Counted from the first letter of the stretch, positions 24,913 to 64,000 are shown. The stretch is 64,000 nt of DNA from an uncultured Gammaproteobacteria bacterium (GCA_964507055.1 CAZDOJ010000001.1:13210-77209); one strand, 5' to 3'. Numbers and translations: made by a program. The notes: generated from the sequence alone by a model not told the origin.

Positions 24913-24953
24913 CCCATTTTTCGAACTTTGGTGTCAAGTGTTTCGCTCTATAT

Positions 24954-24982
24954 TTGACGCTTCACAAAACTTCTTCTATAAT
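24954..24982 (+). promoter_or_regulatory. Sigma-70-type promoter for the first island gene: -35 'TTGACG', a 17-nt spacer, then -10 'TATAAT'.
   Basis: TTGACG lies at 24954-24959 and TATAAT at 24977-24982. The ATG at 24992 lies 9 nt downstream, giving a near-leaderless transcript. Confidence 0.55.
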
Positions 24983-24991
24983 CGCAAGATT

Positions 24992-27016
24992 ATGGAAAAG
25001 GATAGATTGTTTTCAAACAGAGATAAGGCTTCTCGAGAAATGTACAAGCAAACACGTAAAGCGATAGGTGGACCTACGCGTATTGATAGTTTATTCGTTG
25101 CGACTACTTTGACTGGAGAGCCCGTCAATTATAGAGAAGATTTTACTCAACCATTGCTTGAAAGTGAGTATCGTAAGGCAGGATTAATCATGCATACGGT
25201 GGAGCATGCAAGAAGTAATCCTCTTACATTGGTCCCTGAGTTAGTGAAGACGAAAGCGTTTGCCATTGATGCAGTAATAATTAATGGTGAAATGCATAAA
25301 GATAATGGCACACATATGGTTGCTGTTGTTCCAACGGATACTGAAGAAGATGGTACAAAGCTTACTGAATATCATGTTATTGATTCTCTCACCGAGGGTG
25401 GTGTTACTTCATATAAGTCAGAAATAGAAGCCTATGAACATATCCAATCACTCTTTGTACCGGAATCTGTCCTCATATCTCTTCACCCGAGTGAAAAAGA
25501 AGTTGAACGAAGAACACATCATGGAGATGAAATTATTACGGAAATGCTTCAGGTTGGGGATAATGCCTTCATAGAGGTTCAGGTTGCAAATGATGATCCT
25601 AGATTTTTTGGAAAGAAAGAATCGGAAGTAACTACTGCTGAAACGCTCGAGCAAGACAAAAAAGCATTGCAAGAAGTGATGCATGCACTTATTGACGATT
25701 TCCATAGCGAAGATCCAAGTCGTAAGCAGTATCTGTATACAGAATTCGCAACCATAGCAGCTCGACACGATATGCGTTACCCTTTGCTCTCTGAAATAGC
25801 GATGGATCATCTCGAGCCAGGTGCTACTCCTAGTTCCGAAGATCTTCAAAATGTACATAAGACTATCGAAACACAGCCAACAGATAATAGTATCGTGGAT
25901 ACACAAATTCCAGCATCAGTACTTCGTTCTGCCAAGCGATTGGTCGCTCATTATGCACAAGAACAAGCAAGTGACCCCTCGTTACGCGTTGTAGATATTG
26001 ATGCTCAAGTATCCTTTATTGATGAACAGGTTGCTCTTTATAACAAATCGCTTTACGATTTAGGTGATCTTTCAGAATATAACCCACGAGAATTTACTGG
26101 AGATGAATTACTAAAAGGAACCAGAGCTGCGTATGAAGAGGCACGAAGAAAGGGCTTGGATGTAATGACACCTGATTCTGAGAATGTCCGAAGTGATGGT
26201 AAGGTCGCGGTAACCTATGGATTCACTACATTTGAAAAAACAGGGAAATGGCGTAAAAAGCAGCAAACCTCGTGGAGATCTGCAATGGTGTTGGTTCTGG
26301 ATACAGAACAAAGAAAGCCTATTATATATGGTGCTCAGGATGGATCTTCTCATGAAATTATGATTGATGGTGTAGGTACGTCTGTTGAAAATTTGACTGT
26401 TGATAGAGCGGTTGCAGTTCATACCAATAATTTAAATATAAAAGAGGTTGAGGTCGAGGGTGGTGCTTCTTTACATTTTGATAGTGGACATCTAGCATAT
26501 GCGACTGTTCGTCCAGAAGCGACAGTTACTTTTGAAAACTCAGTTGTGAATATGGTAAGTTCAGACAAGAATACTCGAACGTATGCACATTATAGTCAGA
26601 TCGGAAGAGTGCAGGTAATAAATGGACTTTTTGATGTAGGTGGTACAGATATTGGCCATTTATATGCGAGCGATGCTAGAGTAAGCGTGTATGGTGACAT
26701 AGTAAAGCTTACTGCTGATAATAAAAATACAGCATTTACACAACAACAAGGAGTGTGCGGAGAATATTATGGACTGAATCAAGCACACATAGTGCACTTT
26801 GCTTCATATCCAGAGAAAGTGACTGCATCTCCTAATACAAGATATTTCGTTGATGACGAAACTGTCCAAATAGATCGTGATGGAAATAGATGTGTATATT
26901 CTAAGGCTTATGATCAATTTCAATATGACAGGGAACACACCATTGATGCGATGCATACGCTAGTAGACTGGTCAGGGCAAAATGATGATGTTGAAGGTCC
27001 CCGAAGATCACTGTGA
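24992..27016 (+). CDS. Tag-bearing island protein 1. It is a hypothetical protein with a beta-helix-like repetitive C-terminal half.
   Basis: It ends 'VDWSGQNDDVEGPRRSL'. The start was moved to the ATG downstream of the promoter, because the ORF track's GTG start would include the promoter itself. Repetitive segments such as 'VEVEGGASLHFDSGHLAYATV' suggest a parallel beta-helix. Confidence 0.6.
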   Translation: MEKDRLFSNRDKASREMYKQTRKAIGGPTRIDSLFVATTLTGEPVNYREDFTQPLLESEYRKAGLIMHTVEHARSNPLTLVPELVKTKAFAIDAVIINGEMHKDNGTHMVAVVPTDTEEDGTKLTEYHVIDSLTEGGVTSYKSEIEAYEHIQSLFVPESVLISLHPSEKEVERRTHHGDEIITEMLQVGDNAFIEVQVANDDPRFFGKKESEVTTAETLEQDKKALQEVMHALIDDFHSEDPSRKQYLYTEFATIAARHDMRYPLLSEIAMDHLEPGATPSSEDLQNVHKTIETQPTDNSIVDTQIPASVLRSAKRLVAHYAQEQASDPSLRVVDIDAQVSFIDEQVALYNKSLYDLGDLSEYNPREFTGDELLKGTRAAYEEARRKGLDVMTPDSENVRSDGKVAVTYGFTTFEKTGKWRKKQQTSWRSAMVLVLDTEQRKPIIYGAQDGSSHEIMIDGVGTSVENLTVDRAVAVHTNNLNIKEVEVEGGASLHFDSGHLAYATVRPEATVTFENSVVNMVSSDKNTRTYAHYSQIGRVQVINGLFDVGGTDIGHLYASDARVSVYGDIVKLTADNKNTAFTQQQGVCGEYYGLNQAHIVHFASYPEKVTASPNTRYFVDDETVQIDRDGNRCVYSKAYDQFQYDREHTIDAMHTLVDWSGQNDDVEGPRRSL

Positions 27017-27052
27017 TCTTTTATTCTTGATAAGTGCTATAATACTACTTTT

Positions 27053-28978
27053 ATGACAGAGCAAAAACGAAATATTGGTCCAGCTGCCGCATTATTAAAG
27101 ACCAATCCTGAACTAATAGCACAATCACCAGAGATTGCAAGACAGCTTATAGCGGATAAAGGATTTGCAGGTGAGGCTATAGCACGTCTTGGAGGAAGGA
27201 GGATGCGTCTTCTTCTTGAAGGTAGTGCAGCCGTTCATAGAAGGGCAATGATGCCTATCTCAGGACTGAGTCGTGTCGATACAGTTGTTCCTCAATATAC
27301 CGGAACGCACGAGGAAAACACGCGTATTGATGAGGGTATAAAGACGGGACGGAAAGCCGTCATTAATGGCGGAAAAGATAGAGAGAAAGCTGAGGTTGGA
27401 GCGATTGATACGTTGCGTCTTCCTGAGTTTAAAGTCCCCGCACAAATAGCAGATACTCCCATTATTATTATTGGTGGCGGTGCAGCAGGTATTATCAGTG
27501 GGCGAAGTCTTCATGAAATGGGATTCACAAATGTGAAAATCTTTGAAAAAGGTAAACCAAACGGTATTTGGAATGCAGATAATGCTGACATTACTGATGG
27601 GTCACGAAATAATCCCTCAAAGATTGTATTTCATCATCGTCACCGAACGAGCTCCTCTATCCCTCCCGTTCCAGGTTCAGGGAGAGAAATTACGAGTTTT
27701 CTTGATGACATGACCAAGGGGCCTTTATTGTCCCAAGAATTGAATATACGCACTGCAGAAGTAACACATATCCAACCTGGAGATCTGCATCATATTGTTC
27801 ATTATCAAACGCCAGAAGGTGAAGCTCGTGCTGCAAGTGCTCCAATTGTGATTAATGCTACTGGAGTGGGAGAGCCTCTCCCTGCAAACCTACCCGGGAC
27901 AATGGAAACTTCAACAAAAGATGCTGGAGTTCGTTGGCAAGAAAAGATTACCCCTCAAATGGCTGAAGAGTATCGAAATAAGTCTATGGTATTAATTGGT
28001 TTGGGAAATAGCACTGCCGAAATGCTCATGCAAATTCAAGCTTATAACGCCCAAGGTTATAATATTGGCTACAAAATACTTACGCATTATCCGCAGGAAG
28101 CTGTGGTCGATCCTACTTCAACCTATAATTTGGAAGGTAGGCACTTTAAAGTTTTTCGTGACTCAAGAAATCTTGGTAGATACGACGGAGATTTGCAGGA
28201 GCCGAGAGACGCATACGTGCAAGCAGTTCAAGGAGGTAAGGTTATGGCTGATGTAACTCGATGGGATAGAATCGGTGATAACGTAATGGTCGAGATGCGG
28301 GACGGATCTTCACAAATAATTCCATGTGATCGCCTCTACACATTGATAGGTTATGGTCAGCCAGTCGAAGTTCTTGAAAAAATGGGTATGACTGTTACAG
28401 ATGCGGATAAAAGGACTGTCGCTGTGGATTATGATGGAGAAGTGCAAAGAGTGCCTGGAGTAGCAGGCCGTGATCGAGTATTTCCTGGTTATTTTGCAAG
28501 TGGATCCGTATTAAAATCATCAACAATGCCAAATGCATCGGTTATTCCTGGAATTTTTTTCCGTACGCCTGACTTACTCCTCGCTGTTACCACCAGAGCA
28601 ATGGAATATCAGATTGCTATTGAAAAATATAAAAAAACAGAGATAGCGGCGAAATTATATGGTCAACAGCCTAAGCCTGAAAATCGAGCAGGTGCACATC
28701 GAGCAACTGATTCAGAAACTATGTTGGACGGCGTTGTTGCTCAATGGATTACTAGTGAACAGTCTATTCAGGAATCTTTACACGATTCTGAGCCTGAACC
28801 AGTGGTCCCAGAAGAAGAGATTTCAGAGCAATCGAAAGAAGAGATCGTTTTTACGAGTGGCATACAAATTAGTGATGGGAAACTCGTATTTGGGCCTCTT
28901 CCAGGATTGGATGATAGAGTAAGTTGGGATATTGAAGCCGGTCCCGAAGATCAAGATCCGCCAAAAAAAACTCTCTAG
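27053..28978 (+). CDS. Tag-bearing island protein 2. It is an FAD/NAD(P)-binding oxidoreductase with two Rossmann folds (flavin monooxygenase or pyridine-nucleotide-disulfide-oxidoreductase-like).
   Basis: The first dinucleotide motif is 'IIIIGGGAAGIISGRS' and the second is 'MVLIGLGNSTAEM'. The divergent tag is '...SWDIEAGPEDQDPPKKTL'. A 'TGCTATAAT' box lies 9 nt before the ATG. Confidence 0.6.
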   Translation: MTEQKRNIGPAAALLKTNPELIAQSPEIARQLIADKGFAGEAIARLGGRRMRLLLEGSAAVHRRAMMPISGLSRVDTVVPQYTGTHEENTRIDEGIKTGRKAVINGGKDREKAEVGAIDTLRLPEFKVPAQIADTPIIIIGGGAAGIISGRSLHEMGFTNVKIFEKGKPNGIWNADNADITDGSRNNPSKIVFHHRHRTSSSIPPVPGSGREITSFLDDMTKGPLLSQELNIRTAEVTHIQPGDLHHIVHYQTPEGEARAASAPIVINATGVGEPLPANLPGTMETSTKDAGVRWQEKITPQMAEEYRNKSMVLIGLGNSTAEMLMQIQAYNAQGYNIGYKILTHYPQEAVVDPTSTYNLEGRHFKVFRDSRNLGRYDGDLQEPRDAYVQAVQGGKVMADVTRWDRIGDNVMVEMRDGSSQIIPCDRLYTLIGYGQPVEVLEKMGMTVTDADKRTVAVDYDGEVQRVPGVAGRDRVFPGYFASGSVLKSSTMPNASVIPGIFFRTPDLLLAVTTRAMEYQIAIEKYKKTEIAAKLYGQQPKPENRAGAHRATDSETMLDGVVAQWITSEQSIQESLHDSEPEPVVPEEEISEQSKEEIVFTSGIQISDGKLVFGPLPGLDDRVSWDIEAGPEDQDPPKKTL

Positions 28979-29135
28979 AATGTCAGGTAGTATCTCTCTT
29001 TTTCATGTTATAATTCCGCCATGCCAAATATCGTGGGAAGAGATTGGAGGGGCATATGAGATGAGGGACCGAGTGGTAATCATAGGACTTTGTAGAACTT
29101 GCAAAAACCATAAAAATATCCTATAATATTAAGCT

Positions 29136-32129
29136 ATGAATAGAAAAGAGGCGCGGGCTTATTTCCGAGATCTTGGAAAAGAGACTCGTATCGATGATGC
29201 AAATGCACGCAGTACCCGGCGTGAATATCTAGCTGGTGAACGTGAGAGTGAAGCTTTTCTAGAAGCACAATCTGTAGTTCGTAAACATGCTACTCGTATT
29301 GGATCAGCTAGAAAATACTTTAGAGATCTAGGTCGAGAATTGCGTGGAATCGATGGCACTTTTCGTAAAGAATATTTAGCTGAAGAAAAAACTACAGAAG
29401 CATATCGAGATGCTCGTAGTATACTTCGCACAGATGCTCAGGAAAAGCATGCTTCCAGATCTGAAGGTGAAGGTCGACCAATCCCTGAAAGAATAGTTAG
29501 AGCTGCAGAACAAACTCCACAAGCTACAGTTACCTCAGATGAAATTGCCGTTCCTATGGATCATAGAGAAGCAATTGATCAGAATCCATCAACAGAAACA
29601 GCCAATCAAGAAACTATTCGGTGGGCATACTCCGTTATTGACGGTTATCGGGCAGCAATTCCTGAAAAAGGTACGAGAAAAGTTAAAACTGAAGCTGCAA
29701 ATGCGTATGTTCGAGAGCAACTGGTTGAGGTTATCCACGATCCTAATAAATTAGAAACAGCATTTGGTATCTGGAAAGCAAACTCAGATGAATCATCATT
29801 CTATCGAAGTGCCAAAGAAAAACTTCCAAGTGTTGTTGGGCGACATTGGGATGAGATCTCACCAAAGATTCTTGGTGAAACCGTAACGAAATATGCCCGT
29901 AACGGATATGTTGCCCAAGAATTTGAAGAATACCTCAAAGGATATTTTGAAGGGCCAAAAACAACGGAAGACAGGGTTGAAGCGTATTATCGATACTGCG
30001 ATGCAGCTCTTGATCTAGCGAATGATCCAGAATCTGTGCGAAAAGCTGTTGAAATTGGAAATTTTGAAACAGATATCATGTCCAGAAGGGGAGAAATGTT
30101 TCAAGATGTCATGTTGATTAATTTTATGGGTGTATATGATCCTCCACTTCGTCAAAAAGCAAGTACAGCTGTAAAATTAGTTATGACGAGTCTAACTCGA
30201 CTTGTAGGATTTGATCGCGATGAAGTGATGCGAAAACATCTAACAGCAATTGAAGCTATGCAGGGTGATCCAAAGTTTAACCATAAAAGACGACATATAC
30301 AAAGACTTTCAGTAAAGGGAAATATGGTAGGTTTTAAAGAGCTTTATGGAGAAGAGATCCCGACGATGGGTAAAGTATTTGGTAATTCAACTGGTTTACC
30401 AACAGATATTTATAGACAAATTATGCATGGCAATACAGATCTTGAAGCAGTCGAAGACCTTGCAGGTGGGCAAGAAGAATGGCTACGAGATCCGCTGGGG
30501 AAAAAGGTTTATGATAAGGTCCTGGGAAGATCTTCTATGGCTGCACATAAGATATATATTGCTGGTGAAATAAACGCAAGTGGTGAAGATGTCGTCTTCT
30601 TAACAAGACAAGTGGACGGAGTCATGTTGGAAGTGGGAATTCCAGCGTCACTCGCAGGTAGTCGAGATGCTATTTTAGAAGCATGCTCAGCTAGTACAGA
30701 AAATATTGCGATGGTAAAAGATGAAGGACTTCCTTTTGTTCCTGTAGAAGGTTTTCATTATGATAATAAACTTATCTATGCTACATATCGAAAAATAGAT
30801 GAAGCAGAAAATACCAACAGACATCCATTGGAAATGCTCAATAATATTGGCTTTCCAGATGTCGCATCTGAAGATTTGGAAGCTGATAATGCTGCACTTG
30901 CGACGCAAATTGTAAATGAACAACGACGATTCTTGAATACAAGAGGATTTAGTATACCTCTTACCCATCCGGCTTTAGCAGATAGAGGATACCAGAATTT
31001 TACTTTCAAGAAAAATCCTGATGACAATCGTGTGACTGATCTTACGATTAAGGTAAGAAATACTGAGATTAAAGTTCGTCTTGATCAGGATTTCCGTTTT
31101 GATTTAGAAGGGATGGAATGCGATGTTCCACAAAGAGAATCGATCCATAATATTATCTTAACAGTCCTTTATCCTGCTCTTTGTGGATTAAGTGCCAAAG
31201 ATCATGATGGCAACGAAACTGATCTTTCGAGAATTTTCCAAACTCGAGTTGGGTATATTGGTTATCTTGGTTCAGGACGAAACTTCACTGATAAAAAGGC
31301 AGAAGAGTTTTTCTCTGTAGAAGGTCGAGACTTATCCACGGTATCAGAACAAAGAAAAAGTATTGATCCGACGGGACAATCGAGAAACTCTAGTTATTGG
31401 GCACCAGTTGAATCTGATGATCCAAATCTTCCACCGGTGCGTTTAAATATTGGCTTGCCTGCAGATAAATTTAAAACCATTGCTCCTGAGGCTGAACAGG
31501 CTGCTTTGGAAGCTGCTACGACAGCGGCATTAGCAAATATTGTTTTTGAGGGGGAAGTTAATGAAAGTACTCCGAGAAGAGAATATGTAAGTCCTTTTGG
31601 TGCAAATGTTATTCCTGATGTGGAAAGACGAGAAATAGAAACAACATTTAAAAGTAATGTGGAAGTTTCTATTAGGAGAGGTGCACGATTAGAAGCAAAC
31701 TTGCATCAGCTAGAATTACAGCAAGCAGAAGATGTAAGTATGATTGACAACTATCCAGAGTTCCATAAAAAGAGAGGTGAACTTGAGAAGGCAATAGAAA
31801 AAAGACATACAAAGATTTTAGAAATGACTACTTCATTAAAAGAGAATAGGGATCTACTAGAGGGTGTGGCAGAGTTATGGACAGACTATCCAGAATTAGC
31901 ATATCTAGAAGGACGCGAGGAAATAAGTGTCACTGAGAAAGCCTTGCTAGTTGCAGCTGCAGATGAATCCAGAACTGCAGCAAATTGGCAGCAAGAAACT
32001 ACTGTTTTTGATGGTACAACTGCTCCAACTTTAGAATCTGATACAACAGAAACTTTTGAAGAAACGAATGGACATATTGATTGGACAGGTGAAGGTGACG
32101 ATCATTCTGGTCCAAATCAAACTCTATAA
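29136..32129 (+). CDS. Tag-bearing island protein 3. It is a large (997 aa) hypothetical protein with an N-terminal tandem 45-aa repeat.
   Basis: It ends 'GHIDWTGEGDDHSGPNQTL'. The N-terminal duplicated unit reads 'ARAYFRDLGKETRIDD...REYLAGERESEAF' and then 'ARKYFRDLGRELRGIDGTFRKEYLAEEKTTEAY'. A TATAAT box lies 8 nt before the ATG. Confidence 0.6.
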   Translation: MNRKEARAYFRDLGKETRIDDANARSTRREYLAGERESEAFLEAQSVVRKHATRIGSARKYFRDLGRELRGIDGTFRKEYLAEEKTTEAYRDARSILRTDAQEKHASRSEGEGRPIPERIVRAAEQTPQATVTSDEIAVPMDHREAIDQNPSTETANQETIRWAYSVIDGYRAAIPEKGTRKVKTEAANAYVREQLVEVIHDPNKLETAFGIWKANSDESSFYRSAKEKLPSVVGRHWDEISPKILGETVTKYARNGYVAQEFEEYLKGYFEGPKTTEDRVEAYYRYCDAALDLANDPESVRKAVEIGNFETDIMSRRGEMFQDVMLINFMGVYDPPLRQKASTAVKLVMTSLTRLVGFDRDEVMRKHLTAIEAMQGDPKFNHKRRHIQRLSVKGNMVGFKELYGEEIPTMGKVFGNSTGLPTDIYRQIMHGNTDLEAVEDLAGGQEEWLRDPLGKKVYDKVLGRSSMAAHKIYIAGEINASGEDVVFLTRQVDGVMLEVGIPASLAGSRDAILEACSASTENIAMVKDEGLPFVPVEGFHYDNKLIYATYRKIDEAENTNRHPLEMLNNIGFPDVASEDLEADNAALATQIVNEQRRFLNTRGFSIPLTHPALADRGYQNFTFKKNPDDNRVTDLTIKVRNTEIKVRLDQDFRFDLEGMECDVPQRESIHNIILTVLYPALCGLSAKDHDGNETDLSRIFQTRVGYIGYLGSGRNFTDKKAEEFFSVEGRDLSTVSEQRKSIDPTGQSRNSSYWAPVESDDPNLPPVRLNIGLPADKFKTIAPEAEQAALEAATTAALANIVFEGEVNESTPRREYVSPFGANVIPDVERREIETTFKSNVEVSIRRGARLEANLHQLELQQAEDVSMIDNYPEFHKKRGELEKAIEKRHTKILEMTTSLKENRDLLEGVAELWTDYPELAYLEGREEISVTEKALLVAAADESRTAANWQQETTVFDGTTAPTLESDTTETFEETNGHIDWTGEGDDHSGPNQTL

Positions 32130-32170
32130 AACTTATAGCAAGGAAAGCATGAGTTTGATATACTTTCACT

Positions 32171-33298: not shown

Positions 33299-33346
33299 AT
33301 GATTTAGCCCATTGCGATAATCCAATCATGTCTTTATAATGCCCCT

Positions 33347-33679: not shown

Positions 33680-33754
33680 TAGGACATACAGTTTGGTATT
33701 TATAAGTATTTGAGGCAATAGCATATTTTATATTGACATGATATACTCCCAGCT

Positions 33755-53528: not shown

Positions 53529-53576
53529 TAGCAGCCTGTAGTAGAATTTTGAGCCTAAATTTGGTATAATCCGCAA

Positions 53577-56027: not shown

Positions 56028-56078
56028 CTTGAATATAAGGCTAAATTCAACTATAATACCCCGATACATTAGATAACT

Positions 56079-57275
56079 ATGACTGAGACACGAAAACCAA
56101 GAGAACCCTTCAAATTGAGTAAGCCAGTGAACCCAGCATACAGAGCAGCTTCAAAAAGATGGTCAGACCATCCAACGGCTGTAGACTTCACCAATTATGC
56201 TGACTACCACTGGGTTGAGAAATTTAATGAACATTCCAGAGCTGGAAATAAAATTGCAGCATTAGGATGGTTGCTGGCAGGACAAACCCGAAAGTCATTT
56301 ATGACCCGATATGATATCGTAGGTCGAAATGAAGTTGCTCCTCGGATGAGTGATGCTCAAAAGCAGACAATCAGTCGTTTTGAAACAGTCCAAAAAGTAA
56401 CAAATATCATAAAACGTGCACTTGAAGATAGTGAGACAAAAAAGCGTAGACCAAAGGAGCCACTTAGACATAGAATTGCTCGGTATAAGGATGTTTTTGA
56501 TTCAGCGAGAGCAAAAAGAAGAGAGAGAATCGATAATGGAGGAGGACTTTTTAATACGGCATTTTCTACATTTGTTCCAGATAAAGGAATTGAAAATGCA
56601 TATAAGAGTAAAGTAGCACGGCAATATGGACCATCTGATGAGGAGTCTGCTCAACAAGGGGTGGCTGAAAAAGAACCTAAAAACACTTTTGATATAGGTC
56701 ACGGATTGACCGTAGACTTTGATCAAGCTCGAGATGCTGGACTTGATGCCGTAGAAGGTAGATTGGGGCCGATAACTGGAAATGAGACTAACCAGGAACT
56801 AAATGCTCGAAAAGCAATCGCTGCAGAAGCAAGAAAAAAGGATATTCAAGGCCAATTAGATAAACAGCGTGCAGATTTTGATGCTGGACGTGAAAGTCAG
56901 GGGCTTGATCCAGTAGATCATGCAGGAGAACCAGATGCTGATGCTGCAATAGCAAAATACCTCGAAGCAAAAAAGACAACGTCGGAGACTCCGCAAGCTT
57001 CTGTACCGGATATGAAGGGTGTAAAAATAACAATGCCAGGATTTCTCAAAAGAGATCCTGATCGAAATAAAACCTTTGAGGAACGTACACTTGCAGAAGT
57101 TGCTAAACGTGTTGCAGAAGCCGAAGCTGCGAAACAGGCTTCAGTTTCCCAAAATCGAAATGGTATGCCTGAGTTATCAGATGATCAAAATGTGCCGCTA
57201 TCGACTCTGGATGAAAGTGTACAATGGGATGGCTCTGACAGTCCACGTGGGGTCGATGGGCCAAAGATGCGATAA
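56079..57275 (+). CDS. Island protein 20 with a degenerate tag. It is a basic, Lys/Arg-rich hypothetical protein.
   Basis: It ends 'ESVQWDGSDSPRGVDGPKMR'. It is the last plus-strand gene of the array and is convergent with the minus-strand operon, with a 4-nt gap. Confidence 0.55.
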   Translation: MTETRKPREPFKLSKPVNPAYRAASKRWSDHPTAVDFTNYADYHWVEKFNEHSRAGNKIAALGWLLAGQTRKSFMTRYDIVGRNEVAPRMSDAQKQTISRFETVQKVTNIIKRALEDSETKKRRPKEPLRHRIARYKDVFDSARAKRRERIDNGGGLFNTAFSTFVPDKGIENAYKSKVARQYGPSDEESAQQGVAEKEPKNTFDIGHGLTVDFDQARDAGLDAVEGRLGPITGNETNQELNARKAIAAEARKKDIQGQLDKQRADFDAGRESQGLDPVDHAGEPDADAAIAKYLEAKKTTSETPQASVPDMKGVKITMPGFLKRDPDRNKTFEERTLAEVAKRVAEAEAAKQASVSQNRNGMPELSDDQNVPLSTLDESVQWDGSDSPRGVDGPKMR

Positions 57276-57279: not shown

Positions 57280-58797
57280 TTAAAGTGTTTTCGGTAGATC
57301 TTGATCAGGTTCATCTTCTCCAGCAAAATCAACTGCATCGGTAGGTATTCCATGCTCTGACGCAAAGAATATAGGCATAGCAGCTTTCGTTATCTGAATT
57401 TGTTCTGGTTTTTCTGTAACCTTTGGTTTTGGAGTAATTTCGTCTATCATACCTAATTTTTCTGCTTCATCGCGAAGAGATGGTGCACCTAATGCTTGTG
57501 TGATCGCTGATGAAGACGTATCAATTACTTCTTCAGGCTCTCCAGAAGCTCGAATTTGCTCAACAGGAATACCTCCAATTTCAGTAATTTCATGTGCATA
57601 GCGTAATGTCCCATCAAGATTTTCAATAATTGCAGGTTGTGTCTCTACTTGAGTTTCGGGCTTTAGGCGGATTCTTTTATATTCGTATTGTTTTATCTTT
57701 TTAGGCCTTAGTCGTCCTTTGAGATATCGCTTGATGCGTCCTTCTTCGCCTGCTTCTTGATCTTCAGCTCTGGCTATCTCAGCAACTTCTTTTGTTCCAT
57801 CGTTCAGTGGTCGCCCTGCTATAATTCCTTGTGTCGAAGGTGGTGTAAATCCATTTTCTGTATAGAGCTGCTTCATTCTCGCCGCGTATGTTTTGTCTAC
57901 TTCTTCAGCCTGGCCGTAATCTCCTTGCAAATCAAAACCGAGCATTCTACGAAACTCATCACGTCTCCGTTCAACAATATTTGAAAGATTATCATCTAAT
58001 TCGATGGATGGATTTCCGCCTTTTATCGTTTCGCCTAGTTCAGGGATTTGGGCCATCCATGCATCATGAGCTCTTGCTGCTTCAGGGTGAAAGAGACGAT
58101 TATATCCATTCCATGGAGCAGCTTCGATAGCTGCAACCCATTTTTGGATTATTGCACGACGCTCCATGTATTCAGTGCGAAGTCGGTCACGATCTGCGAT
58201 CTCTTCAGCACTTGAACCAAGCGGATCCCATGGAATAAATGCGACAGTACCTGTAGCTCTGGATTTTCCATTTTTTCTTGGACCAAATAACACACCTCGC
58301 TGATGATCGGGATTTGCAACCGGACATCGACAGGAATAGGTACATACTTTTACTTCACTCTTGGGAATTATTTTATCAGGGGAGATATATACTTTTGCTT
58401 CATCAGTTAGTTCATCAAGGAGCTCTGTTGCAATACTGAGGGAGTCTGTTATCCCGGCTGCCATATCTTGCTCAGTTAATAAGTCCTTGGCTTCAAGTAC
58501 TGCCTGTTTGCCGAGGCGAAGTTCATGCCTTGTCGGTTCTGTTGAAGTTTCAGTGGCCGTTTTTTCTATATCCGTAGGGGAAATACCATGCAGCATTGCA
58601 GCAGTTACAAGTCCATCAGTTGCGAGTCTTCTTGCATCTGGATCATCAATCTGTTGAGCACTAACTAACGCAAAAGAAATAGGAAGCACATATCTATCTG
58701 CAAGTTCTCTCTCAGATTGAGCTGTCCGCTCTCGTGAAGCAGCTGGAATTCCATCCGGATGTGGATGTCTTGGTCGGAATCTATCAGGAGTGTTCAT
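57280..58797 (-). CDS. Tag-bearing protein 21 (minus strand), translationally coupled to the upstream VirD4-like ATPase.
   Basis: It ends 'DAVDFAGEDEPDQDLPKTL'. Its ATG lies 1 nt after the TAG stop of the ATPase gene. It has a Cys cluster 'CTYSCRCPVANPDHQRG'. Confidence 0.6.
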   Translation of the reverse strand: MNTPDRFRPRHPHPDGIPAASRERTAQSERELADRYVLPISFALVSAQQIDDPDARRLATDGLVTAAMLHGISPTDIEKTATETSTEPTRHELRLGKQAVLEAKDLLTEQDMAAGITDSLSIATELLDELTDEAKVYISPDKIIPKSEVKVCTYSCRCPVANPDHQRGVLFGPRKNGKSRATGTVAFIPWDPLGSSAEEIADRDRLRTEYMERRAIIQKWVAAIEAAPWNGYNRLFHPEAARAHDAWMAQIPELGETIKGGNPSIELDDNLSNIVERRRDEFRRMLGFDLQGDYGQAEEVDKTYAARMKQLYTENGFTPPSTQGIIAGRPLNDGTKEVAEIARAEDQEAGEEGRIKRYLKGRLRPKKIKQYEYKRIRLKPETQVETQPAIIENLDGTLRYAHEITEIGGIPVEQIRASGEPEEVIDTSSSAITQALGAPSLRDEAEKLGMIDEITPKPKVTEKPEQIQITKAAMPIFFASEHGIPTDAVDFAGEDEPDQDLPKTL

Positions 58798-58798: not shown

Positions 58799-61700
58799 CT
58801 ACTTACCTAACTTTGGTGGCCCATCGTCTTTGCCTTTTTCATTTTTCTTTTCCATTTCATTGTAAAGTTCAACTTCTTGCTCCATAGTAAGTGGTGCATC
58901 TAATTCAGGACGAGGTTTTGGTTCAATTGCTGTTGTTTGTCCTCCAAGTACTTGTTTATCCGTTGGTGTGATATTTTGCGTTGGCTTAACTGTCTCTCCT
59001 TCAATAACAAATGAATCAGGTCTTCTTGCTAGTTCTCCACGTGGTTTTGGTCCAAGTCTTGGCCGTAGTGCTTCTATCTGTTTTGCAGTGACCAACTCAA
59101 CAAAGATTGGTCTACCATTTTTAAGTGCTACAATTCCTGTAAAGTCAGGCAATCTTGTAATATCTTCAGGTCTGACGATTGGTTCCCGTACGTCCTCATC
59201 AGTTTTTGTTGTTACAGTGATTTCTGGAATTCTTTGGCTTGGGTTCGTCGTCCTACTTATCTCTCCGCCTTTTCCTCGAGTAGTCGTTGTGCTGCGAGGC
59301 GTTCTATGTGCTGGAGTTGTTGCTTTACTTTCTTTTGTTACGGTACGAGTATGTTGTCCGAAATATGCACTAAATTCGTCAACAGTGGCTTTGTCATCAA
59401 GATTTGGGAGGAGTAATCTACCACCATGACTGTTACTTCTTACTGTAACATATCCATCTTGGGTCCAAATTCTTCGAGCCTGTCCACCATCTTGTATTGC
59501 CCCGAGATATTGCTGCCATCTCTTTCGAGAAAGTGCTAAGAATTGATCGTAGTTACGAATTGGTGCAATATGAGGCAATTCGTCCAGAGCTCCAAGCATT
59601 CGTGGTCCCATAGGTAATCCTTCGACACCGCGTCTTTCTGAATTTTCACCATGTGCTCTAAAATGTGTCATAAGATGTGCAAGGAAGAGCCCTCGGTATC
59701 GTTCTTGATCTGATTCGTGAGCCATCATATAAAGTGATGGACGATTTTCAAAGGTATCATCACTATACATAGTATTGGGATCAATTTCATGTACTTTCGT
59801 TGCATCTTGCACTTTTGGATCTGTCCAAGGTTCAAGTGCTTGGCGTGCCATTGTAATAGCTGATCGTGCGTTTTCTGCACCCGTTCGTAAACCTTCTTTT
59901 AAGTCGAGAAGTGCATTCCATGCCTGGACTGAATCTGATCGGAGTGCCAGACCTTCTCTAATTTTTTCTTGGTCACCGTAAGCTGCACCCTCAGCAATTA
60001 TTCTTCGTGCTTCACCTTCCTGCCATACACAGAATCCAGCAAGTTTTGGTAGGGGACTAAGTTGTCCTTTGATTGTAAAGCGTTGAGCGGCTTCAAGAAC
60101 GTGACCCATATGTCGGGGAGATTCCATATTATATCGTCCGTTGATATACAGTAATGGAGTCATCAACATACGTGCTTGACTATGCCAATAGTCCATATTG
60201 GAGTCGCTATCATTACCTTTGCTTATTCCACTGATAAGTTCGTTTGCAATTTTCATTGACTCAGACCATGTCCGTGTATGTTCAAGTGGATTCCATCGAT
60301 GGGTGCCTTCTCCTGAAGTATCAAGCGGATCCCATCTGTATACATCTCCATGAGAACGAGCCCAACCTTCAGTTTTTTTCCAGATTTCACTTCCAACAGC
60401 TGTTGATATCACCAGACCTCGTCTTGCGAGAATATTTGGAACAATGATTGATTCTGATTTACCTTGTCCTGTTGGTCCAACAACAAGTCCATGTCCACCT
60501 TCTCCTCCAGCAATGAGTCTTCCGCTACTTCGTCCCCAGATGATCCTGTCTCCGAGTTTATCTATGTTTCTGCTTGCGAAATAATCTTGTCTAGACATTT
60601 CTCTTCGTGTAGGCCAACCATATTCTGGATCTCCACGTCGACTTCTGCGACGCATTGCACGTGTATCATCGATCATCTGTTGGACGACAAAATCAACCCC
60701 ATCTCTCATTGCTCTCATAATTTCTGACTGGCTTCTGAATTCTGTTTGTTCAGTTATTCTTGTAGGACCATCGATATCTGGCATTCGTTCAGGGCGGGGA
60801 ATAACTCGTGTTCTTAGATGTTGAGGTTCTCTTCTTGTTGGGTTTGTTGAGGCTTCAGTAACCACTGGCTTTGCGTTGTCAGGGTGAGCTGGTTCTTTAC
60901 CCGTAGCGGGGACCACCAATACACCATTAACAAATTTCAGTTTTTCTGTTTGCTCCTCAACGGGAATATTTGGTGTACCGTCGAGTGGGATCGTACCTCG
61001 AATTTTGTCGGGAGTTAATGTGCTGAGGTCTTCTCCTGCAGGTACAATAATAAGATTCCCTTCATGAACAACAAGTCGTGCATTTGGGATTGAGCGTCGT
61101 TCTGTCCAGTGTACTTCGACTGTCTCAGCTTTTTCTCCACCGGACCAAAGGCGAATAGTTGTGTGCTCATTAACTTTTGTTTCAAAATACGTACCTTCCT
61201 CAGTTGACCTCTTTATTGCATTCTCACTGATTTCTCTCCATTTTTCATTGTAATCCTTCACAACTTGAGTAGCTGGTGCTTCCATCCGTGATCCTACTTT
61301 TTGCAATTCTTTTTGTACATCAGCAGCGAAAAGATCTAGATCTGGAAGTTCCTCTATATTTGGTAAACTAGGATCTTGATTTACTTTTGTTACTGTGCCT
61401 TGTAAGTCTTTCGTGGTGGAATTTTGTGTAAGCCTAATACCAAACTCAAGCGTTTCCCATTCTTTTTGTGTGAGGGGTCCTGATTTTTCTTTTAATCGTT
61501 CGGTTAAACCTGTGAGATCTGTTTCTATATGAGCAAGTATCGTAAATGCTGCATTTTGTCTTTGCACCTGGGTTCTGATTTCCTCTGGAATCGCTTCTAC
61601 CGGAAGATCTGATAATCGTTCAATAAGTTGATAATCAATATATTTAATGAGGACATTTCCCAATACTTTCTTTTCTGTTTCGGTTAGAGATTTTAGATCT

Positions 61701-62551
61701 CGTTGCATTTCATCTTCTGGAAGTGCAATTTCATCAGCAGTAGTTTCTTCAGCACCAGAAGGGTATGAAGGTGGTATCTTTCTATCTTCGACGGGAGCAC
61801 CTTCGGCTGAAACAGTTTGTTTCTGTGTTCCAGTTGTTTGTTCTTCTGAGCCGACTTTTTCAGTAACAGGAGCTTCTGTTGTCGAAATATCTTCTGTGCG
61901 GATTGTAGTTTGCAGGCCTGTATCTATCGTTGCTTGCTGATCTGTATCATCCGTAGATTCTCTACTACTGGAACCTGTTTGATGATCACTTCCTGTAGTA
62001 TCCTGCTCTGTGTCTGAACGATCATTCCCATGTGCATCGTCCTGACTAGATGTATCTTGTCTATCTGTCTGTTGGCTGTCTTCATTCGCTGTTTCTTGTT
62101 GTTCGGTTCTGACCTGATTTCTTTCAGTTTCTATTTGTGGTTGCTGAGGAACTTCATCACGAATAAAGGCTTGTTGTGTAAGAATACCTGCTCGTATATT
62201 AGATATTGGGTCTCGATCTCGTCCTAAGTAATTCTCATTTAAATTGGTCTGTAATTCTCCCGGGTTAGTTTGTGCAATGTCATACAGAGCAGATCCAATT
62301 TGATCAACTGTTTCTATTTCTGGGTTTCCAGTTAGTGTCCGAGCAATGTCTACATATGCAGCTTTAAGTGGAGCTTCTGCTCGTATAATTTGTTCTGCTG
62401 AGGGCCTATCTTTTCCGATAGATTTTGTGGCTTGTCTGCGAATATCTCCCAATACGAAAGAATTAATCCGTGCAATCCCAGCAGTTCTTGGATCAACTGC
62501 TTGATCTTTATGTTCATCTCCTGGTCTGCCAATTGGCCTTTCTGCTGCCAT
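58799..62551 (-). CDS. VirD4/TraG-like type IV coupling protein (T4CP)-family P-loop ATPase. It is atypical: it has no TM helices and carries a 650-aa acidic low-complexity N-terminal extension.
   Basis: The Walker A region is 'GLVVGPTGQGKSESIIVPNIL', compared with the VirD4 pattern 'GPTRSGKGVG.VIPNLL'. The downstream segment is 'GDVYRWDPLD....RWNPLE', compared with the VirD4 pattern 'v.fDP......fNPL'. The Walker-B-like segment is 'MLGALDELPHIAPI', compared with 'LLDEF..LG'. 'RKRWQQYLGAIQ' and the C-terminal 'EDITRLPDFTGIVALKNGRPIFV' are also present. A 'TGTTATAAT' box lies about 30 nt upstream on the minus strand. Confidence 0.7.
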   Translation of the reverse strand: MAAERPIGRPGDEHKDQAVDPRTAGIARINSFVLGDIRRQATKSIGKDRPSAEQIIRAEAPLKAAYVDIARTLTGNPEIETVDQIGSALYDIAQTNPGELQTNLNENYLGRDRDPISNIRAGILTQQAFIRDEVPQQPQIETERNQVRTEQQETANEDSQQTDRQDTSSQDDAHGNDRSDTEQDTTGSDHQTGSSSRESTDDTDQQATIDTGLQTTIRTEDISTTEAPVTEKVGSEEQTTGTQKQTVSAEGAPVEDRKIPPSYPSGAEETTADEIALPEDEMQRDLKSLTETEKKVLGNVLIKYIDYQLIERLSDLPVEAIPEEIRTQVQRQNAAFTILAHIETDLTGLTERLKEKSGPLTQKEWETLEFGIRLTQNSTTKDLQGTVTKVNQDPSLPNIEELPDLDLFAADVQKELQKVGSRMEAPATQVVKDYNEKWREISENAIKRSTEEGTYFETKVNEHTTIRLWSGGEKAETVEVHWTERRSIPNARLVVHEGNLIIVPAGEDLSTLTPDKIRGTIPLDGTPNIPVEEQTEKLKFVNGVLVVPATGKEPAHPDNAKPVVTEASTNPTRREPQHLRTRVIPRPERMPDIDGPTRITEQTEFRSQSEIMRAMRDGVDFVVQQMIDDTRAMRRRSRRGDPEYGWPTRREMSRQDYFASRNIDKLGDRIIWGRSSGRLIAGGEGGHGLVVGPTGQGKSESIIVPNILARRGLVISTAVGSEIWKKTEGWARSHGDVYRWDPLDTSGEGTHRWNPLEHTRTWSESMKIANELISGISKGNDSDSNMDYWHSQARMLMTPLLYINGRYNMESPRHMGHVLEAAQRFTIKGQLSPLPKLAGFCVWQEGEARRIIAEGAAYGDQEKIREGLALRSDSVQAWNALLDLKEGLRTGAENARSAITMARQALEPWTDPKVQDATKVHEIDPNTMYSDDTFENRPSLYMMAHESDQERYRGLFLAHLMTHFRAHGENSERRGVEGLPMGPRMLGALDELPHIAPIRNYDQFLALSRKRWQQYLGAIQDGGQARRIWTQDGYVTVRSNSHGGRLLLPNLDDKATVDEFSAYFGQHTRTVTKESKATTPAHRTPRSTTTTRGKGGEISRTTNPSQRIPEITVTTKTDEDVREPIVRPEDITRLPDFTGIVALKNGRPIFVELVTAKQIEALRPRLGPKPRGELARRPDSFVIEGETVKPTQNITPTDKQVLGGQTTAIEPKPRPELDAPLTMEQEVELYNEMEKKNEKGKDDGPPKLGK

Positions 62552-62697
62552 ATTTTTGGTATATGTGTAAGAAATGATGATTATAACATAGGATATGATT
62601 AATGAAAAGCTTGGTAGATTAATGTGATCAAAAAATCATACAGAAATCATACATCCTGTAGTAGTATTTTTACCAGTTTTTTGATAAAATATCCACC

Positions 62698-64000
62698 ATG
62701 GAGCCTAGAGAACCGAGAGGTTTCCGCAGAATTGCGGACAGATTATTATCTCCTGAACTACAGCGAGGAGATCCAAGAGGAAAAGCATTTACCATGGTAA
62801 ATGGTGGCCACGATGTTGAGGACATACCGCAGCTTAACCATTGGCGTGCACATGTTCGCACAGCATTGTCTATTACACCTACTGGGAAAAAAGTGATGCT
62901 TTATTTAGAGTCTGGAGCACTTACCACATTGCAATCTGAACGAATACAGCAATTAACCGATCAAGGTATGACATTGACTGATGCCGAAGCACAATTACGC
63001 TACGAAACTATAAATACTGGGGGACGTAAGTCTCGAAAAGATGCTGATAAGTGGAGGCCTGCATTGCGTCAACAGATACGAAGAGAACGTGAAGAAAACA
63101 GACAAACTTACCTTCTTGAAGTTCGAGATCAGGTAGATGCTCTGATCAGAGAATATCCAAATCGATTTGTTGTCACTTTAGAAGGACAAAGTGATGAAGT
63201 TCTTGATGCAAATAGTACATTTCAAGATGAAATTGAAGCACCTATTCCTACAAATGTGCGGTCTGGGCGTTTGATATCAGATCGGCGGGCACAGTTGGAA
63301 GACTGGGCAGCGAATCAAAAAGTTCGTGAAACTAAAATTGTTAAAGATATTACATCAGCAATGTCCAGAAAAGACGTACATGTTGGAGTAGGCTTACAAG
63401 GTGCATGGCATCACGGTGGCGTTGATGTTCAAGTTCGAGAAAATCTTCGTTTGCCTGATGATGTTTCGGGAAGAATTGTGACAAGTTCTTTTGCAGAATC
63501 TCACATGCCAGTTCAAGAGCGTGGACAGATTCTCTATCCGTTAAATCCTCAACTTGACCTCATGAGAAGAATTATTAATGGTGAAGCGATAAGTGATAAC
63601 GAGATTAGATTTGCGATAGAGGCAGAAACAATTGATTTTAATCAGATGACTCCTGAAGACGCTATCTTGAGAGGCACACGTCCGGAGGCCGATTCCTATC
63701 TCTCTGACTTTACAGCCGACACAATGGTGATCGGAGGAGTATATCCAACTGGAAAAAGTCCTGAATATTATAGAGATCAACAGCGATATGTTCGATTAAA
63801 AATGGCTTTGAATCAAGAAACCACGCAATTAAGGGCAGTATCTCCAAAGCAACAAGAAACGCAAGGAGATGATACTTCTTCATTGCATATACATGATTCC
63901 TCTGTGCGTGCACGGACCTATAGCGGATCTCCTGAGGACTATTCTTTATTATCTTTGTCGACACGCCAAACCATGGTTGCTATGGCAGGAGGAAGCGAAG
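62698..64000 (+). CDS. Family A paralog, divergent from the ATPase gene. The CDS is partial and continues past the window end.
   Basis: 'KAFTMVNGGHDVEDIPQLNHWRAHVRTALSITPTGKKVMLYLESGALTTLQSERIQQLTDQGMTLTDAEAQLRYE' aligns to the family A N-terminus. 'GVGLQGAWHHGGVDVQVREN' aligns to 'GWVGAxHTG'. The C-terminal tag region is not in the window. A 'TGATAAAAT' box lies 8 nt before the ATG. Confidence 0.55.
   Translation, partial: MEPREPRGFRRIADRLLSPELQRGDPRGKAFTMVNGGHDVEDIPQLNHWRAHVRTALSITPTGKKVMLYLESGALTTLQSERIQQLTDQGMTLTDAEAQLRYETINTGGRKSRKDADKWRPALRQQIRREREENRQTYLLEVRDQVDALIREYPNRFVVTLEGQSDEVLDANSTFQDEIEAPIPTNVRSGRLISDRRAQLEDWAANQKVRETKIVKDITSAMSRKDVHVGVGLQGAWHHGGVDVQVRENLRLPDDVSGRIVTSSFAESHMPVQERGQILYPLNPQLDLMRRIINGEAISDNEIRFAIEAETIDFNQMTPEDAILRGTRPEADSYLSDFTADTMVIGGVYPTGKSPEYYRDQQRYVRLKMALNQETTQLRAVSPKQQETQGDDTSSLHIHDSSVRARTYSGSPEDYSLLSLSTRQTMVAMAGGSE

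Follow-up and report, generated by a model that had tools for sequence, protein, structure and literature searches.

Thirty-four genes whose products share a C-terminal tag lie, together with a gene for a VirD4-family coupling-protein-like ATPase, at window-equivalent positions 24992 to 79834. The window is the whole stretch of DNA that was analysed, 64,000 nucleotides long; the array was followed beyond it on contigs L001 and L085 of the same strain. It measures 54.8 kb, ~4.2% of the 1.32-Mb contig. Of the tagged genes, 21 lie to one side of the VirD4-family gene and 13 to the other, without a single untagged interrupter. Housekeeping genes border the 34-gene array at both ends, with an aaRS gene and a gene for a 273-aa protein on the left, and DHH, HIT, rpsU, ybeY, dnaX and recR on the right. 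The window also codes for pseudopilin-like and many surface proteins.

The part of the array seen in the window is as follows.

24992..27016, plus strand: T01, 674 aa, tagged (…LVDWSGQNDDVEGPRRSL); body kin to T26 only
27053..28978, plus strand: T02, 641 aa, flavin/pyridine-nucleotide oxidoreductase-like (Pyr_redox_3, 40 bits); degenerate tag (SWDIEAGPEDQDPPKKTL; tag HMM E 4e-6)
29136..32129, plus strand: T03, 997 aa, orphan body, tagged
32171..33298, plus strand: T04, 375 aa, family B, tagged
33347..33679, plus strand: T05, 110 aa, degenerate tag without W (FDGSNDGQSGPRRSL)
33755..35056, plus strand: T06, 433 aa, family B, tagged
35116..36297, plus strand: T07, 393 aa, tagged
36348..37661, plus strand: T08, 437 aa, family B, tagged
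37667..38845, plus strand: T09, 392 aa, weakly family B, tagged
38847..39899, plus strand: T10, ~350 aa, family A (TIKI-superfamily hydrolase-like), tagged
39976..41019, plus strand: T11, 347 aa, family A, tagged
41055..42089, plus strand: T12, 344 aa, family A, tagged
42117..43289, plus strand: T13, 390 aa, family A, tagged
43320..44513, plus strand: T14, 397 aa, family A, modelled
44557..46401, plus strand: T15, 614 aa, sigma-70-family, regions 2-4 at residues 37-294, extra sigma4-like HTH, tagged
46443..48695, plus strand: T16, ~750 aa, orphan body, tagged
48738..50768, plus strand: T17, 676 aa, multi-wHTH, paralog of T18 (40-43% identity), tagged
50811..53528, plus strand: T18, 905 aa, multi-HTH, 230-aa insertion relative to T17, tag still extreme C-terminal
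53577..56027, plus strand: T19, 816 aa, N-terminal family-A domain plus ~500 more residues, tagged
56079..57275, plus strand: T20, 398 aa, basic orphan, degenerate tag ending in …DGPKMR
57280..58797, minus strand: T21, 505 aa, orphan, degenerate tag (VDFAGEDEPDQDLPKTL)
58799..62551, minus strand: VirD4-family coupling-protein-like ATPase, 1250 aa, no TM helix, no tag
62698..64000 (window part), plus strand: T22, 527 aa, first 434 residues in the window, family-A-related N-terminal domain; tag read from contig L001 (…IDWAGENDPDTGPRRTL)

The start of T07 was reassigned from GTG 35098 to ATG 35116, which lies 8 nt after a TGnTATACT box, and a TATAAT sequence is found 9 nt upstream of the T01 ATG at 24992. 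The T21 ATG comes 1 nt after the stop codon of the ATPase gene, so these two genes form an operon.

An original prediction made from the window described a 39-kb array of 21-22 proteins. Translation bears out the tail on all 21 of the ORFs it named (20 plus-strand ORFs at 24992..57275 and the minus-strand ORF at 57280-58797), each ending in the quoted motif with the four degenerate versions included, but the array runs past both the ATPase gene and the end of the window. Beyond the ATPase are 13 further plus-strand tagged genes (T22-T34, contigs L001 and L085), the first of which starts at window position 62698. The predicted CPR setting also holds, as the source organism belongs to the CPR/Patescibacteria. 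The best explanation is a species-specific 55-kb island on a Patescibacteria chromosome (Microgenomatia, Levybacteria-like). The genes flanking it are mostly 85-98% identical to those of a congeneric genome. The island itself may be missing from that relative, because a word-indexed protein search gave no close homolog of the ATPase even though the proteins of the congeneric genome are in the database.

A strict C-terminal tag confined to the array

The tag spans ~33 residues, reading P-x-L ... (S/P)-L-x-x-(L/I)-(D/N)-x-x-[IV]-D-W-x-G-x-x-D-P-D-x-G-P-x-R-[ST]-L, and its core can be summarised as [IV]DWxGx[DE]DPDxGPxR[ST]L-COOH. The motif first recognised in the last 16-19 residues is retained, while the conserved module proves to be longer. 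It occupies the extreme C terminus in 34 of 34 proteins and ends in R/K at -2, S/T at -1 and L at 0 in 32 of them; a literal W-x-G is present in 22. Net charge averages -3.3 over the last 20 residues and -4.7 over the core that precedes R-[ST]-L. All six leucine codons are used for the terminal Leu and the longest DNA word shared between tags has a median of 7 nt, indicating that the tag is held by selection on the peptide and not by DNA repeats. It stays at the very end of the protein despite large upstream indels and added domains (T17/T18, T19 and T22).

A tag HMM was used to search every six-frame ORF of 40 aa or more in ~105 kb (the window with contigs L085 and L087). In this search 33 tagged ORFs score between E = 5e-14 and 4e-6, the 34th, T22, being in L001. 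The next best match has E = 7.3, with none in 25 kb of housekeeping genes and none in the ATPase; this gap excludes a chance origin. An exhaustive HMMER search with the tag profile against 1.84 billion cluster representatives (E<=1e-3) gave 21 matches, every one aligned at the extreme C terminus. Three of these, encoded outside the window and L001, map to the same 1,318,932-bp contig in the continuation of the array, and the other 18 agree with array proteins by sequence or length. No tag from outside the array was found among these representatives, and none turned up when JGI metagenomes and IMG/VR were scanned at the DNA level. The profile and HMM searches both confine the tag to the array and do not place it on housekeeping proteins genome-wide. 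The tag is modular and strictly C-terminal, as originally described, and is exclusively linked to this ATPase gene as well.

Over the tails there is no Pfam or NCBIfam match and no homology to BID or XVIPCD, and their acidic character is unlike the basic Arg-rich tails of the Agrobacterium/Bartonella type. Sortase or exosortase-type sorting signals, which combine an N-terminal signal peptide with a motif, TM helix and basic tail at the C terminus, were considered and rejected, as hydrophobic segments are absent from all tagged proteins. An encapsulin cargo-loading peptide was also rejected: Pfam matches for genes in ~107 kb include no encapsulin or HK97-fold family, and a shell protein gene was not found beside the cargo genes.

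Diverse soluble proteins carry the tag

BLAST connects 13 of the 34 bodies into one set that holds families A and B, and sorts the others into four HTH/sigma proteins, a family of three, one pair and 12 singletons; overall, the bodies form at least 14 unrelated groups. The view of the bodies as unrelated is mostly right, with these joined sets as the exception. Divergence has taken the paralogs down to 23-33% identity, and orphans make up the majority of the bodies, which, judged from sequence, is the pattern of an effector repertoire. Lengths range from 110 to 997 aa and folds are diverse. In no tagged protein does any 19-residue window exceed a Kyte-Doolittle mean of 1.65, where neighbouring membrane or secreted proteins reach 1.9-2.9. 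The scan agrees with the earlier statement that N-terminal signal peptides and hydrophobic segments are missing, and the 34 proteins, which all lack signal peptides and TM segments, do not qualify as Sec substrates.

Family A comprises nine predicted TIKI-superfamily hydrolases in which a 2His/2Glu(+Arg) set is conserved. Pfam models of the superfamily give no sequence-level match to the family. In the structural model of T14 the core has the TIKI/ChaN/Ere alpha/beta fold with the conserved His/Glu residues as its predicted catalytic residues. In the same model the C-terminal ~100 residues that bear the tag are of low confidence, placing the tag in what appears to be a flexible, low-pLDDT tail. 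The TIKI/TraB/ChaN/erythromycin-esterase superfamily includes the toxin domains RRSP, PMT-C1/C2 and HopBA1. For family A, the C-terminal tag is new to this superfamily.

An exposed and disordered tail, as modelled for family A, could instead mark proteins for conditional proteolysis or sequestration by an adaptor, its acidic stretch and hydrophobic end serving as a degron or quality-control tag that restrains dangerous enzymes. C-terminal degrons are common in bacteria, and the predicted hydrolases have no immunity-like genes beside them in the array, a point that also weighs against export. Such a role is nevertheless very unlikely: known C-terminal degrons fall far short of the specificity of a 33-residue consensus with Trp and Gly-Pro, the island holds no protease or adaptor gene, and a degron would not account for a tag linked exclusively to a T4CP. 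The original prediction also read the last three residues as a class-I PDZ ligand. This does not stand, as that pattern needs S/T at -2 with a hydrophobic residue at 0 and the tails, ending in (R/K)-(S/T)-L, have it at -1.

A divergent VirD4-family ATPase without a membrane anchor

The product of 58799-62551 matches Pfam T4SS-DNA_transf at 101.8 bits (cutoff 20.1), TraG-D_C at 39 (22) and TrwB_AAD_bind at 35.2 (20.5). The proposed check for an FtsK/HerA protein came out in favour of a coupling protein, with no other ATPase family, FtsK_SpoIIIE included, found by Pfam at E<=0.01. The best NCBIfam models are a VirD4-like CD1115 family and VirD4/TraG, all below their equivalog cutoffs, and the sole database homologs are VirD4 proteins of ordinary conjugative clusters. 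By sequence definition, the ATPase is a very divergent VirD4-family coupling protein (T4CP). Walker A (GPTGQGKS) lies at residue 692, and LGALDELP at ~985-994 aligns with LLVLDECA of the homologs as Walker B. Between these motifs, residues ~780-985 are predicted to be helical, with two insertions relative to the homologs (AF2 mean pLDDT 37); they are a candidate for the all-alpha domain that T4CPs carry within the NTPase domain.

The NTPase (660-1160) follows a 660-residue soluble N-terminal extension made up of an N-terminal domain (1-130), an acidic disordered region (140-290), a helical and beta region (290-560) and an Arg-rich linker (550-660). T4CPs are usually anchored by two N-terminal TM helices. 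Here the anchor is absent, with a 19-residue Kyte-Doolittle maximum of 1.34 at the Walker A strand, and the polar extension takes the place of the hydrophobic N-terminal segments of the nearest homologs (P0030 and P0031).

The missing helices count against export and are among the features that suggest a cytoplasmic hub, in which an exapted, soluble VirD4-like ATPase would gather tagged proteins inside the cell. The N-terminal extension or the Arg-rich linker would bind the tail for assembly, ATP-dependent remodelling or regulation, and the target of the tagged sigma factor and HTH proteins would be the genome of the bacterium itself. Sigma factors and HTH proteins are ordinary cytoplasmic regulators, which also weighs against export, and the array has no channel genes nearby. 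Exaptation of T4CPs has been raised as a possibility in the CPR literature (PMC12102498). A hub is still unlikely, as a common cytoplasmic dock is hard to explain for nine TIKI-type hydrolases, a flavoenzyme and ~20 orphans, and the fast divergence of the paralogs resembles an arms race with an external target. We know of no precedent for a T4CP serving as a nonsecretory hub.

The search for VirB homologs suggested with the original prediction yielded nothing within the ~107 kb scanned around the locus, where VirB4, VirB6, VirB3, VirB8, VirB1 and pilin are all missing, and this counts against export. In Patescibacteria, T4SSs are widespread, relaxase-less and without known substrates, and only 148 of 5,713 T4CP genes are near virB4, making distance from the channel genes the norm in the phylum (PMC12102498). 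A further point against export is that in the one CPR species tested genetically the T4SS is essential and the T4CP is dispensable (PMC12102498).

Proposed export and comparison with known systems

The favoured reading, held with moderate confidence, is type IV export to a host cell, with the tail docking each tagged protein on the ATPase. It is established that T4SS signals at the C terminus are received by T4CPs. The island would encode a client repertoire of 34 soluble proteins plus the ATPase that receives them. The flexible client tail would present its last ~33 residues as a linear docking peptide with a Leu/Asp turn, a Trp (missing in T05), an Asp-rich stretch, Gly-Pro, Arg-(Ser/Thr)-Leu and a free carboxylate. 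It would bind a single receptor, the VirD4-family coupling protein encoded mid-array, candidate sites being the putative all-alpha region, the Arg-rich linker or the unique 660-residue N-terminal extension. The ATPase would pass clients to a type IV secretion channel whose genes lie in another part of the genome, and because it has no membrane anchor it would need a partner to recruit it to that channel. Clients would leave the cell, and their most probable destination would be the episymbiont's bacterial or archaeal host. The predicted cargo includes nine TIKI-superfamily hydrolases, a sigma-70-like factor, several multi-HTH DNA-binding proteins, a flavoenzyme and many orphans, a set that could cut host proteins and re-programme host transcription. 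Counted against export is that the island may not be core to the organism's lifestyle.

Export of a different kind is improbable, though it deserves comparison. The tail would then be a cargo-loading or secretion signal for non-T4SS machinery (a vesicle, a compartment, a pilus-associated route or a CPR-specific system), and the ATPase would act only as a chaperone or unfoldase or be linked by co-inheritance. A short, portable C-terminal tail is found in encapsulin cargo-loading peptides and T1SS/T7SS signals, and the literal W-x-G and the pseudopilin-like and surface proteins of the window would fit. However, encapsulin shell, ABC/T1SS, EssC/EccC and contractile-injection genes are absent by Pfam in ~107 kb, and the T4CP is the only machinery gene within the array. 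Type VII (WXG100 with EssC/EccC) systems share with the array a W-x-G motif, a C-terminal tail and an ATPase of the FtsK-HerA superfamily. EssC/EccC are multi-domain FtsK_SpoIIIE proteins, while the array ATPase is a single-NTPase VirD4-family protein that FtsK_SpoIIIE does not match. The clients were rejected as type VII substrates: they vary in size and fold where WXG100 proteins are helical hairpins of ~100 aa, and they carry W-x-G in a disordered tail.

For type IV export through the VirD4-family ATPase, one close parallel is the Bartonella virB/virD4/bep locus, where effectors likewise expanded by duplication and domain shuffling, are encoded with the coupling-protein gene and share a C-terminal signal, there read by VirD4 (PMC6519360, PMC8714903). 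In Bartonella the signal consists of a folded BID domain of ~100 aa together with a positively charged tail, whereas the array has a ~33-aa acidic linear motif. The 7-10 Beps also derive from one ancestor, in contrast to the 34 proteins and at least 14 body types of the array, and have adjacent virB channel genes and a membrane-anchored VirD4, neither of which is found here.

Xanthomonas X-Tfes resemble the array in joining unrelated enzymatic bodies to one conserved C-terminal module, the XVIPCD, which binds the VirD4 all-alpha domain, is required for interbacterial T4SS delivery and depends on exposed hydrophobic and acidic residues (PMC8740702). That module, ~120 residues long, pairs a folded ααβββ core with a Gln-rich tail and occurs in >350 species, while the array tag is short and found in one genome. 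X-Tfes are scattered in the genome and have immunity genes; the array is clustered without them.

The tag also resembles the E-block of Legionella Dot/Icm, where acidic Glu-rich tails are bound by the DotL partner DotM, the signal is unstructured and C-terminal, basic patches of the coupling complex recognise it and binding needs a ~25-residue peptide (PMC5802825). The array tag is likewise acidic, C-terminal and, in the model, unstructured. The E-block is a loose compositional feature, whereas the tag follows a strict positional consensus that is rich in Asp, contains W and GP and finishes with R-[ST]-L. Homologs of DotM, DotN and IcmSW were not seen.

A fuller version of type IV export has the anchor-less, extended ATPase of an ultra-small CPR episymbiont reading the ~33-residue signal and all 34 proteins being injected into a prokaryotic host, where the sigma-70-like factor and the multi-HTH DNA binders would take over transcription and the nine TIKI-type cargo proteins would act as proteases or esterases. 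This version is tentative and, taken whole, doubtful. If true, a Patescibacterial T4SS would for the first time have an effector repertoire and a consensus-type translocation signal assigned to it, and the sigma factor would be the first bacterial one to be secreted. The array offers the first plausible, testable list of proteins that CPR bacteria with tiny genomes might deliver to their hosts.

Extent and expression of the tagged array

The locus is an array of genes (T01–T34) whose proteins end in a common acidic C-terminal tag, arranged around a single gene for a VirD4-family coupling-protein-like ATPase. Its main features, in window coordinates, are the following:

24091 to 24912, minus strand: orphan 273-aa protein bordering the array on the left
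24992 to 79834 (window-equivalent): the whole array, 54.8 kb
24992 to 57275, plus strand: 20 successive tagged genes, T01–T20
57280 to 58797, minus strand: tagged gene T21
58799 to 62551, minus strand: the ATPase gene
62698, plus strand: start of T22, the first tagged gene past the ATPase

ORF translation across 24.9–62.6 kb bears out the original prediction that 20 successive plus-strand genes and one minus-strand gene carry the tail, including degenerate versions at all four sites it named (genes at 27053, 33347, 56079, and 57280). The end point it gave was too early, as the array runs on beyond both the ATPase and the window. In the same strain (Logan SRR14271340 contig, 100 kb; stretches L001 and L085, which carry the continuation), 13 further tagged plus-strand genes lie beyond the ATPase; therefore, the whole array comprises 34 tagged genes and one ATPase gene and occupies 4.2% of its 1,318,932-bp contig; assemblies of SRR14271340, SRR14271332, and SRR14271359 contain this contig too. 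Housekeeping genes flank it on the left (thyA, folA, glyA, rpsB, tsf, frr, rseP, pgl, zwf, gnd, and a class-II aaRS) and on the right (a DHH protein, HIT, rpsU, ybeY, dnaX, ybaB, prs, and recR). Neither Rfam nor a tRNA scan gave anything in the window, and between-sample strain polymorphism amounted to zero differences.

G+C content is slightly higher in the array (0.41–0.43 in window 24000–64000) than in positions 1–24000 (0.38–0.41). GC skew is steadily positive over the plus-strand genes, and its sign flips at the two minus-strand genes. T20 (plus) and T21 (minus) converge with their ends 4 nt apart (57275–57280), leaving no space for a terminator between them. A single nucleotide lies between the stop codon of the ATPase gene and the start of T21.

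A TATAAT-like −10 box ends 6–11 nt before the ATG in 22 of the 35 array genes, 13 of these with a TG extension (TGnTATAAT), against a background of 5% of random ATGs at that spacing. No Shine-Dalgarno sequence precedes the −10-box genes (array spacers in window 24913–56078 plus flank genes). Such close spacing points to leaderless mRNAs, with most array genes independently transcribed. The same start style is found in housekeeping genes of the window (glyA, 10206; rseP, 16938; the aaRS gene, 22831; gnd, 21168; zwf, 19686; thyA, 8353), which implies that leaderless mRNAs are the general expression style of this genome.

The tag and its clients

Alignment of the 34 tails defines a module of ~33 residues that begins with P-x-L and continues as (S/P)-L-x-x-(L/I)-(D/N)-x-x-[IV]-D-W-x-G-x-x-D-P-D-x-G-P-x-R-[ST]-L. 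In the genes of the original prediction the end pattern is [IV]-D-W-x-G-x-[DE]-D-P-[DE]-x-G-P-x-[RK]-[ST]-L-stop. The Trp and the [ST]-L terminus are each present in 32 of the 34 tags, and the last 20 residues have a mean net charge of −3.3. The suggested match to a class-I PDZ ligand was incorrect, since S/T stands at −1 and R/K at −2. A function as a degron is decidedly improbable.

The tag is maintained as a peptide. All six codons are used for the terminal Leu (CTC 9, TTA 8, CTT 7, CTA 4, TTG 3, and CTG 2), and the longest DNA word common to two tags has a median of 7 nt; thus, selection has acted on the peptide through saturating synonymous change. The same codon evidence rules out a DNA repeat. 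The tag sits at the extreme C terminus whatever the upstream body: It is still terminal in T18, where 230 residues are inserted compared with T17, and in T19 and T22, which have hundreds of extra residues after the family-A domain. A tag HMM run on six-frame ORFs of the window, L085, and L087 (a further stretch) recovered the members at E = 5e-14 to 4e-6, with the next match at 7.3, and found no cryptic copy of the tag in any of these ORFs.

The bodies upstream of the tag had been described as unrelated. This holds for the 12 singletons and several separate groups found by BLAST (the HTH/sigma proteins T15, T17, T18, and T34; the group T29, T30, and T32; and the pair T01/T26), but 13 bodies form one linked set made up of family A (TIKI-superfamily hydrolase-like) and family B, a second paralog set. 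The predicted sigma-70-like factor, multi-HTH proteins, and flavin oxidoreductase are all present. T15 aligns to RpoD/SigA regions 2–4 and has additional σ4-like HTHs, T17 and T18 are multi-wHTH proteins, and T02 is the flavin oxidoreductase. As predicted, no client has a signal peptide, nor does any contain a membrane segment. For the remaining clients, Pfam, NCBIfam, PHROGs, PADLOC, and PDB gave no match. PADLOC, applied to the ATPase with nine of its neighbors, gave weak CARF/HTH-type noise on T17 only, hence no sign of a known defense system, and PHROGs on ten orphans gave one weak transcription-activator match, on T34, hence no phage signal.

Outside the array the tag was not found. A profile built from window sequences only was used in an exhaustive HMMER search of 1.84 billion cluster representatives and matched 21 proteins at E<=1e-3, every one at its last residues. 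Eighteen match proteins known from the window or L001 (10 sequences were retrieved, 7 of them array proteins; the remainder match by length), and the other three (P0014, P0020, and P0024) are encoded on this 1.32-Mb contig and are T28, T31, and T32 of the continuation. The representatives stand for 50%-identity clusters and could hide close sister-species orthologs of tagged proteins; the 90% clusters checked contain this strain only. A word-indexed search with the tag alignment gave seven unscored candidates from a query that was probably too short. At the DNA level, the tag alignment found no tag in either JGI metagenomes or IMG/VR, and a T17/T18 alignment had no match in the JGI metagenomes.

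The ATPase and the export model

The ATPase (1250 residues) scores above threshold for T4SS-DNA_transf (101.8 bits), TraG-D_C, and TrwB_AAD_bind in Pfam and matches no other ATPase family, in agreement with the predicted VirD4/TraG-like identity; NCBIfam likewise returns VirD4/TraG models. Both Walker motifs are intact, A as GPTGQGKS (residue 692) and B as LDELP. The only detectable homologs, at 24–30% identity, are VirD4 proteins from ordinary conjugative clusters, which also encode TrbL, a VirB4-like ATPase, and a TrwC relaxase. Unlike these homologs, which have the usual N-terminal membrane helices, the ATPase has no hydrophobic segment at all. It carries instead a 660-residue N-terminal extension in which a small domain is followed by 150 acidic, disordered residues (net charge about −24) and then by a helical/β region that leads into a linker rich in Arg. 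No family or PDB entry matched this extension; phmmer searches of PDB with the ATPase, T31, and T02 gave no matches, and weak-threshold Pfam searches of the N-terminal parts, T21, and other orphans gave nothing credible. An AF2 model of residues 285–1250, with three distant homologs as input, had a mean pLDDT of 37.

This is the sole coupling-protein gene in the array and the only recognizable machine part of the island. Coupling proteins are known receptors of C-terminal flexible T4SS signals (PMC8740702, PMC5802825, PMC8714903, PMC6519360): XVIPCD attaches to the all-alpha domain of VirD4 (PMC8740702), DotM in the DotL complex recognizes acidic tails rich in Glu (PMC5802825), and Bartonella Beps, which use a BID domain with a basic tail, are encoded with virD4 (PMC8714903, PMC6519360). 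Patescibacterial T4SSs are near-universal, relaxase-less, and without known substrate, with type IV coupling protein (T4CP) genes mostly far from virB4 (PMC12102498), and the T4SS is essential to epibiotic growth in the one patescibacterial species tested (PMC12102498, PMC12857230). Taken together, these points favor a model in which the tail would dock the 34 clients on the ATPase for type IV export toward a host. It is the best-supported model, with about an even chance of being right.

Several points weaken it: the ATPase lacks a membrane anchor, about 107 kb at the locus contain no gene for a T4SS channel, the only CPR species studied genetically could do without its T4CP (PMC12102498), and the island may be absent from a sister species. 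Among the rival readings, a soluble ATPase acting as a non-secretory cytoplasmic hub is unlikely, and there is a similarly small chance that the tail is a signal for some other export or packaging route.

The organism, its sister genome, and wider meaning

The SHMT encoded in the window shares 90% identity with its counterpart in MAG OZ246394.1, a record mislabeled Gammaproteobacteria, and 74–79% with those of Candidatus Levyibacteriota MAGs, with the next matches in Curtiss-, Davies-, and Woykebacteria. On these identities, the organism is a Patescibacteria/CPR bacterium of Microgenomatia. The sister genome (GCA_965230895.1/OZ246394.1) is a congeneric 1.61-Mb chromosome, labeled "uncultured Gammaproteobacteria" and clearly Patescibacteria, that co-occurs in the same sample series (SRR14271365). 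Its positions 18390–39280, compared with window 2564–24429, are syntenic with the left flank (window 3604–24912), mostly at 85–98% amino-acid identity. Synteny reaches the array-bordering gene, and the sister stretch compared ends ~0.5 kb short of the array junction. The sister proteins are in the collection searched with the full-length ATPase, where the word-indexed search, which also missed the self-match for a fragment query, returned only the ATPase itself; this suggests that the sister species may lack the island.

The flank has features of its own. The 273-aa border protein has one C-terminal hydrophobic segment (Kyte-Doolittle mean 2.41, residue 246) and is kept in the sister genome, at 83% identity across the portion compared; conceivably, it might serve the anchor-less ATPase as a membrane partner. 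Between frr and rseP lies an orphan gene of 435 aa (15531–16838, minus strand) that is only 26% identical to its positional counterpart among neighbors above 90%, and is either very fast-evolving or replaced. A nucleotide-metabolism cluster (4950–11525) with two dCTP-deaminase-like and two thymidylate-kinase-like genes adjoins thyA, folA, and glyA; in the sister genome, a NUDIX gene takes the place of hyp241 (7578–8303), and tmk2 has no counterpart. EF-Ts has only 151 residues (14518–14973), as in the sister genome. Membrane-anchored VWA, SdrD_B-repeat, and cohesin-domain proteins and a Hint-domain protein with an N-terminal TM helix (window 582–4812 and 11594–13407; L087 10799–16694) probably form a surface or adhesion apparatus.

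Patescibacteria account for a large part of bacterial diversity. As a kind of system, coupling-protein substrates with a C-terminal tag are already known. What is new is the signal, a strict linear, acidic consensus with its Trp and terminal R-[ST]-L that occurs in no other organism searched. The repertoire is also new in its size and its tight clustering, as are the T4CP with an N-terminal extension and no anchor, the phylum, and a σ70-like factor among the clients. Thirty-four proteins with one precise C-terminal peptide around a coupling-protein gene provide a concrete, falsifiable list of candidate substrates and a candidate signal, and the tag is short enough for synthesis, mutation, and reporter fusion. 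If it is a T4SS signal, it would be an unusually clean linear consensus motif, unlike signals that consist of a folded domain or of biased charge. Should export be disproved, a soluble homolog of VirD4 serving 34 clients as their hub would give this ATPase family a new function. Export of the sigma and HTH clients would show one bacterium taking over the transcription of another.
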